A stretch of DNA of 64,000 nucleotides. Source: Dictyostelium discoideum (lineage: Eukaryota). Below the pieces are notes generated by a model. The model was not told where the DNA came from. It saw only the letters and a program-made list of their open reading frames with translations, and did not search any database. The position numbers were made by a program, and so were the translations under genes. Positions 18,850 to 21,203 of the stretch are shown here, in pieces. Numbering within the stretch: the first letter of the stretch is position 1; each line of letters starts with the position of its first letter. The stretch lies in contig CM000154.2 of NCBI GenBank assembly GCA_000004695.1, forward strand, positions 4,352,001 through 4,416,000, given 5' to 3'.

Positions 18850-21203
18850 ATGAATGATATAATATTAGATAATAACAAATGTACATATCATACAAATACA
18901 AAGCTAAAACTTTTATGTTTAGAATGTAAATTTATTCCATGTTGTATTCAATGTATTTCTAAAGATGGTGAACACCATGGTCATAAAACAAATTCTATAG
19001 ATTCAATGGAAACATCAAATATTCTTCAAATGATGAATTTATTTAAAAATGATATTATTCCAAAATTAAAAGAAACAATAGAAAATGAAAAAAAAATAAT
19101 TTATGAATCTGACAATATTTATAATGAAATTAAACAACAATATGAAAATAATAAAAATTTAGTAATAAATGAATTTAATAAATTTCATAAAATACTTCAA
19201 ATTCTTCAATTAGATATTGAAAAGCAATTAGAAACATCATTTGACCAAAATACATTAATAAATACTATTATTAATTCATCAAAGAATAATAAAAATAATA
19301 ATAATAATAATGATAGTAATAATAATAATAATAATAATAATAATAATAATAATAATAATAATAATAATAATAATAATAATAATGATAGTAATAATAATAA
19401 TAATAATAATAATAATAATAATAATAATAATTATAATAATAATAATAATAATAATTATAATAATAATAATAATAATAATAATTATAATTATAATAATAAT
19501 AGTAATAGTGATGATGAAAATAATAATATAATTAATAATGATGATATCATTTATGGTATTAATATAGAATCAATAAGTAATGAAATAGATAATTTCAATT
19601 ATACTCACTTACAAAATTGTGATGAAAATCAAATTTATAACTGGCTTGGAAATCAAGAAATTTATCAATTATTGAAAAAATATCAACAATCATCATTAAT
19701 AGTCAATAATAAAAATAATATTAATAATTTAAATAAATTAAAAGAATATAATAATCAATCAATAGTATTTAATAATCAAAAAATAGATGATATTAAAAAT
19801 AATTTAAAATTAGTTTATGAATTTGATAATATTAACAACCAAAATAATAAAAACAATTTTAATATTATAGAGAATAATAATAGTATAAATAATAATAAAA
19901 ATGAAAGATTAAAGATTGAAATTGATGAAAATAATTTTAAATTTATAAAGAGTAAGTGTATAAATTGGAAATAAAAAATGTAATTATTAATAATGTATAA
20001 TAAAATTATAATATTCATATATTATAATTAGAAAATTTTGAAAAAATTTATATATATTCAGAGAATAGTGAATTTTCAGATTATCAAGATAAAGAAGCAA
20101 TTGCATTTGGAGAAGATTGTGGTAGTTTATTAAAATTTAATTCAAAAACAAATTTAACGAGTGTTATGTTATTAGATGGGTTTAAAGAAAGTTTAGAACC
20201 AGGTGTATTACCAAATGGTATTAAGAATTTAGAAATAGGTGATATTAAAACACCACTAGTAGTTGGATCAATACCATCAACCATTACAAGTTTAACGTTT
20301 CATGATGGATTTAATCAATCATTAGAACCTGGTATATTACTAAATGGTATTAATTATTTAGAAATAGGTGATATTAAAACACCATTAGTAGTTGGATCGA
20401 TACCATCAACTGTTTCAAGTTTAACATTCCATGATGGATTTAACCAATCATTAGAGCCTGATATTTTTCCTTCTTATCCACAAAATAATGAAGATATGTC
20501 AAATATATTGTCATTTTCATCCATCGGAGGTGTAAAATACTTAACATTACATAATATTAAAAGTGAACTAAACATTGGATCAATTCCAGAGTCAGTATCG
20601 CGTTTGACACTAAAAGATGGATTCTCTCAAACATTAAAGCCAGGTGTTATTCCAAGAAGTGTTAAAACTGTAATATTACACGAAATAACAAAACCATTAA
20701 AAATTGGATCAATACCAAATACAGTTTTAACAATTAGATTTTATAAAGGCTTTAACCAATTACTTACAGCAGGTATTATACCAGATGGTGTTAAATCATT
20801 AGAATTCAACCAAGTTAAGGACCTATTGATTGTCGATTCAATTCCTAAATCAATCTATTCATTATGTTTTGGGTATGGTTTCAATCAAATAATATCACCA
20901 GGTATAATTACTAATGGAGTGTGCGAGTTACATTTGGCAGAAATTAAACAACCATTATTAGTGAATTCAATACCAAACTCTGTCACCAACTTGATTATCA
21001 ATAATGGATTTAATCAATCACTATCACCAGGAATCATTCCAAATTCAATAAAGGTATTAACATTAGGTTATGAAAACATACAATTAGTTGAAGAATCAAT
21101 ACCAAAAACAGTACAAGAAATTATTTTATATGGTAAAATTCAACCATCATCATTAGATATTTGTAAATTAGATAAATCTGTAAAAATAATAAAATATGAA
21201 TAA
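18850..21203 (+). CDS. B-box/FNIP paralog (copy 6), apparently intact. Two exons: 18850..19951 and 20032..21203 (alternative acceptor gives 20062). It has a long poly-Asn tract and an internal duplication of the first two FNIP repeats.
   Basis: The ATG at 18850 begins [14 protein letters not shown]. The track ORF starts 32 codons earlier, inside a poly-T promoter run. The donor a|GTAAGT is at 19952 in phase 1. The acceptor TTAG is at 20030-20031. The frame is open across the splice: ..KFIK|[41 protein letters not shown]. Confidence 0.65.

Follow-up and report, generated by a model that had tools for sequence, protein, structure and literature searches.

The B-box and FNIP-repeat array

By searching with one spliced model (tblastn), we identified eight tandem B-box and FNIP-repeat units in the window, which here means the whole 64-kb stretch of Dictyostelium discoideum AX4 chromosome 5 that was analysed, and in which GC content ranges from 12 to 30% per 2-kb window. 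Five of the eight units are intact (A, E, F and G on the plus strand, with H on the minus strand) and three (B, C and D) are degenerate (Table 1). Three other ORFs of the window were exact matches to AX4 proteins. As this DNA is eukaryotic, the table-11 ORF list that accompanied the sequence does not serve as a gene track here.

Table 1. Positions of the array units, their junctions and other matched ORFs, in window coordinates unless a locus is named.
Feature	Positions	Strand	Details
DDB_G0290603	727-2592	-	ORF, exact AX4 protein match
DDB_G0290605	4438-5592		ORF, exact AX4 protein match
Unit A	6106..8111	+	exon 1 6106-6907; intron 6908-7002 (95 nt; donor GTATGT; TAG end 7002); exon 2 7003-8111; proximal CAG end 7032; 636 aa
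Units B, C, D	8447..18357	+	FNIP regions frameshifted in all three
Junctions of degenerate units	B 11210-11302, C 14499-14569, D 17285-17368	+	C donor GA instead of GT
Unit E exon 1	18850..19951	+	B-box zinc finger, coiled-coil, poly-Asn region
Unit E intron	19952..20031	+	80 nt, GTAAGT...TTAG, 11% GC; TAG end 20031; proximal CAG end 20061
Unit E 30-nt block	20032..20061	+	most likely coding: 10 residues, read with last exon 1 base
Unit E exon 2	20032..21203	+	FNIP-repeat domain up to stop codon
Unit F	23423..25665	+	exon 1 23423-24446; intron 24447-24523 (77 nt; donor GTATGT; TAG end 24523); exon 2 24524-25665; proximal CAG end 24553; 721 aa
Unit G	26104..28044	+	exon 1 26104-26968; intron 26969-27058 (90 nt; donor GTATGT; TAG end 27058); exon 2 27059-28044; proximal CAG end 27088; 616 aa
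DDB_G0290623, RNase Z	35215-37650		ORF, exact AX4 protein match
Unit H, diverged	37816..39535	-	exon 1 39535-38620; intron 38619-38541 (79 nt, GTATGT..ATAG; TAG end 38541); exon 2 38540-37816; 546 aa
Block-skipping copies	L011:10001-11328 (GCA_054859385.1); L004:3001-5697 (D. dimigraforme)		annotated products imply GC donor

Removal of the intron restores a single conserved frame in the intact units and gives products of 546-789 aa, that of unit A being the first 626 residues of AX4 DDB_G0290679. The length of the poly-Asn run is very different among E, F and G and explains most of the size gap between their products (757/789, 721 and 616 aa); in exon 1 of E (19290-19490) and of F (23840-24040) it is encoded by long (AAT)n tracts. 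Both the zf-B_box (PF00643, gathering cut-off 24.1 bits) and the FNIP domain (PF05725, cut-off 21 bits) were detected by Pfam in E, G and H. The FNIP scores were above the cut-off in each (203 bits over 7 stretches in E, 198 bits over 10 in G and 110 bits over 4 in H), and the B-box passed it only in E (24.5 bits), with G (23.7 bits) and H (23.2 bits) falling just under at E-values of about 5e-5. In unit E the ORF opens at an ATG at 18754, and the start conserved in the family lies at 18850; its exon 1 ends ..NFKFIK plus one base (a), so that the intron is in phase 1.

Judged from their sequence, three of the eight array units, B, C and D, are pseudogenes or decayed copies. At the position of the CAG discussed below both B and C read TCA AAG, and so lack it, and a 4-nt deletion in D after the acceptor at 17368 reduces the spacing to 26 nt and puts the distal site out of frame. 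Unit B is spread over about 4.5 kb. The array also varies between D. discoideum strains, one of which carries a truncated, 378-aa E/B-like copy.

One gene across a phase-1 intron

The preliminary description of this DNA, made from its letters, had read the B-box ORF and the FNIP ORF of every unit as two exons of one gene joined by a conserved phase-1 intron, with two in-frame acceptors 30 nt apart in all copies. For the five intact units the positions it gave proved right, with a phase-1 donor (GTAAGT or GTATGT), an upstream TAG and a CAG 30 nt further on, and all five show canonical GT-AG (U2-type) features, the GT lying within that hexamer and the AG following an A/T-rich tract. On the plus strand the donor-context pattern was seen 7 times against 0.61 expected by chance, and in A, E, F and G the TAG lies exactly 30 nt upstream of the CAG. 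The extension to all copies was too broad, as the window holds eight units, of which B and C have no CAG, C has no GT donor and D has the altered spacing. Similarly, an exon 1 ending in F(I/V)K plus a was too strong a statement for every copy, since unit H ends YVT plus t.

The joining of the two ORFs is supported by annotation and by homologues. The first in-frame ATG of exon 2 is preceded by 42-119 codons of conserved sequence (in unit E it stands 45 codons past the junction and within conserved sequence), and an unspliced exon 1 runs into a stop after 5-18 non-conserved codons; with no conserved FNIP start and this early stop, the two ORFs cannot stand alone. In six Dictyostelium species, homologues combine both Pfam domains in one protein. 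That the B-box and FNIP ORFs are separate genes, a view for which the ORF list is the one argument, we consider to have next to no chance of being correct, given an FNIP part that lacks a conserved start, a canonical donor and acceptor that restore one frame in 5/5 intact copies, and the two-domain homologues. Public gene models join both ORFs across the intron, so the ORF track does split one gene in two, as had been proposed.

These models also place the acceptor. AX4 DDB_G0290679 reads ..GNGFVK and continues directly into the 30-nt block, which when mapped back gives an intron of 6908-7002 ending at the upstream TAG. A second D. discoideum assembly, GCA_054883475.1, matches the window at every unit compared and calls products of 636 (A), 721 (F), 616 (G) and 546 aa (H). 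Given the span of each gene and the length of its product, a single GT..AG intron has only one solution in A, G and H, which ends at the upstream TAG, and the products are identical to our distal-acceptor models; F was compared by length alone, 721 aa being that of its distal model. Annotation of window units was thus compared for A, F, G and H, and the upstream site is the one used by P0017, an E-like gene of D. cf. discoideum. The block, in the form [KR][FY]Y.[YHQ].E, is present in most junction-resolved family models that were read, which came from AX4, D. cf. discoideum, D. dimigraforme, D. firmibasis and further D. discoideum strains.

The AX4 and newer annotations share the locus, the first intron and its TAG, and differ at the 3' end of unit A, which AX4 fuses to B and GCA_054883475.1 ends at 8111. 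The 815-aa DDB_G0290679 has exons at 6106-6907, 7003-8073, 8457-8984 and 9275-9321 (window 6106-9321). Its second intron (383 nt, 8074-8456) removes the conserved C-terminus and stop codon of A (8074-8111) and links A with the B-box ORF of the degenerate copy B; GCA_054883475.1 has separate 636-aa and 244-aa genes in its place, and AlphaFold2 confidence collapses past residue 626. Its 3' end makes the AX4 model a probable chimera.

For each of A, E, F, G and H the distal and the proximal spliced product were looked up, ten candidates in all, and none had an exact match in the protein collection searched. Homology searches with G, H and the C-terminal half of E returned neither AX4 proteins for E, F, G or H nor transcript-derived fragments, and a search of family representatives with exon 2 of F led to a family of 2,780 members, none of them near-identical. 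Our literature search found neither a mention of DDB_G0290679 nor a paper on the new Dictyostelium assemblies or on how they were annotated.

The 30-nt block and the choice of acceptor

The ten codons between the two sites read [NK]xxxK[YI]YIYS. The motif first quoted for them, K/N-YYIYSEN[SN]EF, in fact straddles the proximal site, as ENSEF lies downstream of the CAG. In unit E the block ends TCA G(AG), encoding Ser-Glu, and this is the source of the 'proximal CAG'. Base composition was tried as a means of telling block from intron and rejected, both being equally AT-rich (15% GC in the block and 12% in the intron, with 27% in the remainder of exon 2). This shared AT-richness is why the CAG is the site first noticed.

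The behaviour of the block in evolution indicates that it is most likely coding sequence and not intron. It is free of indels in every intact copy, and intron length varies from 71 to 95 nt among array units. In the paralogue pairs F/G, B/C and A/G, block identity was 0.90-0.97 with 0 gaps, like the flanking exons, and intron identity was 0.66-0.81 with 13-27 gap positions. Unit H has a syntenic orthologue adjoining RNase Z in D. citrinum (P0046, 82% identity), from which its ten codons differ three times, always by a synonymous third-position change (TTT/TTC, GTC/GTT and TAC/TAT), and the two introns (79 and 84 nt) are 76% identical and gapped. Nine sequences have a block of 30 nt; it is one codon shorter (27 nt) in D. 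dimigraforme P0002 and one codon longer (33 nt) at the P0018 locus, and pseudogene D alone has 26 nt. The variants in homologues are thus multiples of 3, and intron lengths of 60-95 nt show no mod-3 pattern.

Splicing signals were examined in the same introns. Every intact intron carries a YTRAY motif 28-41 nt before its TAG. In A, E, G and H this TAG is also the first AG to follow the motif, and in F it is preceded by one other AG, only 8 nt past the putative branch-point A. The corresponding motif of unit E, TTAAT, is a candidate branch point 41 nt before the 3' splice site, and the sole internal AG of that intron is within the donor hexamer. As a general rule the first AG after the branch point serves as acceptor, and this favours the TAG. 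Seven unambiguous introns of neighbouring Dictyostelium genes measured 67-92 nt and ended in TAG (4), AAG (2) or CAG (1), so that an intron of 77-95 nt with a TAG end is typical for this genome; seven are too few for a scoring matrix, and a literature search found no paper giving a D. discoideum 3' splice-site matrix.

An AlphaFold2 model of DDB_G0290679 (P0001; 30-sequence alignment, mean pLDDT 71) places strands at residues 264-268 (GFVKN, the end of exon 1) and 271-275 (KKYYI, within the block), with local pLDDT of about 85. With adjacent strands on either side of the junction, the intron seems to lie within a beta-hairpin through which the chain enters the FNIP solenoid. The block would then contribute the second strand of the predicted hairpin, which use of the CAG would delete.

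Taken together, these data suggest, with a probability of roughly 90%, that each unit is one gene with an ordinary intron spliced constitutively to the upstream TAG, that the block is exonic and that the CAG is a Ser-Glu codon pair. Such a gene would encode an N-terminal B-box zinc finger, a coiled-coil and Asn-rich region and a C-terminal FNIP-repeat solenoid, and would be interrupted by one phase-1 GT-AG spliceosomal intron that is short (77-95 nt) and very AT-rich. Splicing would run to the first usable AG after YTRAY (20031 in unit E), and the next 30 nt would be exon, supplying about ten residues, [KN]xxxK[YFI]Y[IV]YS, as the second strand of a hairpin whose first strand would be the last residues of exon 1. 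The 'proximal CAG' would be the third base of a Ser codon and the start of a Glu codon (TCA|GAG). The two acceptors first described are thus most likely one acceptor and a codon pair within the coding sequence, and annotation and conservation point to this use of splice sites in vivo.

The most substantial competing idea is that both acceptors are used and that an alternative 3' choice yields two isoforms differing in the ten-residue segment between coiled-coil and FNIP repeats. In A, E, F and G either site preserves the frame, and the CAG stands in a T-rich context (ATATTTATTCAG). The proximal site is also chosen, and the block skipped, by two automated models in other genomes, one from a D. 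discoideum strain (P0009, GCA_054859385.1) and one from D. dimigraforme (P0018), for which the inferred donor is GC (GCAAGT / GCATGT) and not GT, in copies that look degraded. Competing 3' sites do occur in D. discoideum, where EST surveys counted 39 among 4,246 spliced loci (PMC2397502), and this sets a base rate of under 1% of loci. Against dual use, B and C have no AG at the proximal position, and splicing there would bring an immediate stop (TAA or TAG) in D. dimigraforme P0002, in DDB_G0289849 and in H and its D. citrinum orthologue, so that the site is not a conserved feature of the family; across paralogues and orthologues the two acceptors are not both conserved and frame-preserving. 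The residues to be skipped are the most conserved part of the junction and a predicted beta-strand, and it is the AG of the upstream TAG that comes first after the branch-point-like motif. That both sites keep the frame open, as had been noted, is true of A, E, F and G and argues little, because each donor has 11-13 in-frame AGs at distances of up to about 250 nt, and any of them in an open frame passes the same test (unit E has a third in-frame CAG at 20079). The constant 30-nt spacing, being inherited from a common ancestor, does not make the copies independent observations. We therefore regard use of both acceptors as very unlikely.

A narrower form, in which the A/E/F/G subfamily (whose exon 1 ends in A, with A+AG giving Lys) uses the CAG as a second acceptor at a low or regulated level, producing a minus-10-aa isoform without the hairpin strand, seems very unlikely. 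If it were true, that isoform could be a regulated inactive form of chtB-family proteins. The suggestion in the preliminary description that alternative splicing adds or removes a ten-residue linker accordingly found no support, and is disfavoured by the predicted structure and by a proximal site that is not conserved in usable form.

The reverse proposal makes the CAG the sole real acceptor and the block an intron segment that stays open by accident. The block is indeed as AT-rich as an intron, and CAG is a textbook acceptor and the one first picked by eye. Such use is impossible in H, where, as had been pointed out, only the distal TAG works and the CAG at 38511 would give T+AA = TAA, and in B and C, which have no AG there; substitutions between orthologues are synonymous only, length changes are codon-wise, and the TAG is chosen by both annotations covering these window units. 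We consider this proposal extremely improbable. The upstream TAG, preferred as the real acceptor in the preliminary description, is backed by public gene models, conservation of the block and homologue models, and the claim that this description inferred both gene structure and acceptor correctly from the sequence by itself is supported. Acceptor placement here is a case in which base composition alone fails and reading-frame conservation works, and the array illustrates how a prokaryote-style ORF track mis-splits Dictyostelium genes.

chtB, AreA and other known systems

The social 'cheater' gene chtB (DDB_G0290617), an FNIP-repeat gene of chromosome 5, is a member of this array. It was reported to have two exons and one short intron, and RT-PCR detected its expression over 0-24 h (Santorelli et al. 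2013, PMC3559258). Its published REMI site, chr5:4377789 (PMC3559258), corresponds to window position 25789 if the window starts at chr5:4,352,001. This is the first base of a GATC (DpnII) in the F-G spacer, one of 114 GATC sites in the 64 kb. The position is 124 nt 3' of the stop of F and 315 nt 5' of the ATG of G, and on these distances chtB is probably unit F, less likely G; the REMI insertion would then be outside the F ORF as modelled.

The same spacer has, just upstream of the start of G, two copies of a 31-nt direct repeat (taattaaaataaaagctagatattttttttt) and, after them, long T runs (25909-25970). A short motif is common to E and F past their stop codons (CCAATTCTCAAATATTA / TCCATTCTCAAATATTA, at 21230-21260 and 25690-25715), and this may be a conserved 3'-UTR element or just a remnant of duplication.

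The exon-intron structure, including the upstream TAG, is already known from public gene models and from the chtB paper (PMC3559258). With the structure present in those models and, for chtB, in print, it carries little weight as a discovery. Like the array units, chtB is an FNIP-repeat gene with two exons and one short intron, and its identifier falls between DDB_G0290605 and DDB_G0290623, both of which are in the window; the published account (PMC3559258) gives neither junction sequence nor isoform information.

The junction resembles competing tandem 3' splice sites in having two in-frame AGs, a multiple of 3 apart, after one donor, and differs from them in its downstream AG, whose usability is not conserved among paralogues and orthologues. 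For the joined product, a known counterpart is AreA (DDB_G0279871), a B-box and FNIP protein that binds Atg101 (PMC4554924). AreA has the same two-domain architecture in a single polypeptide as the array units, and unlike them it lies at another locus and carries an extra DUF4559 domain, a likeness drawn here at the level of architecture.
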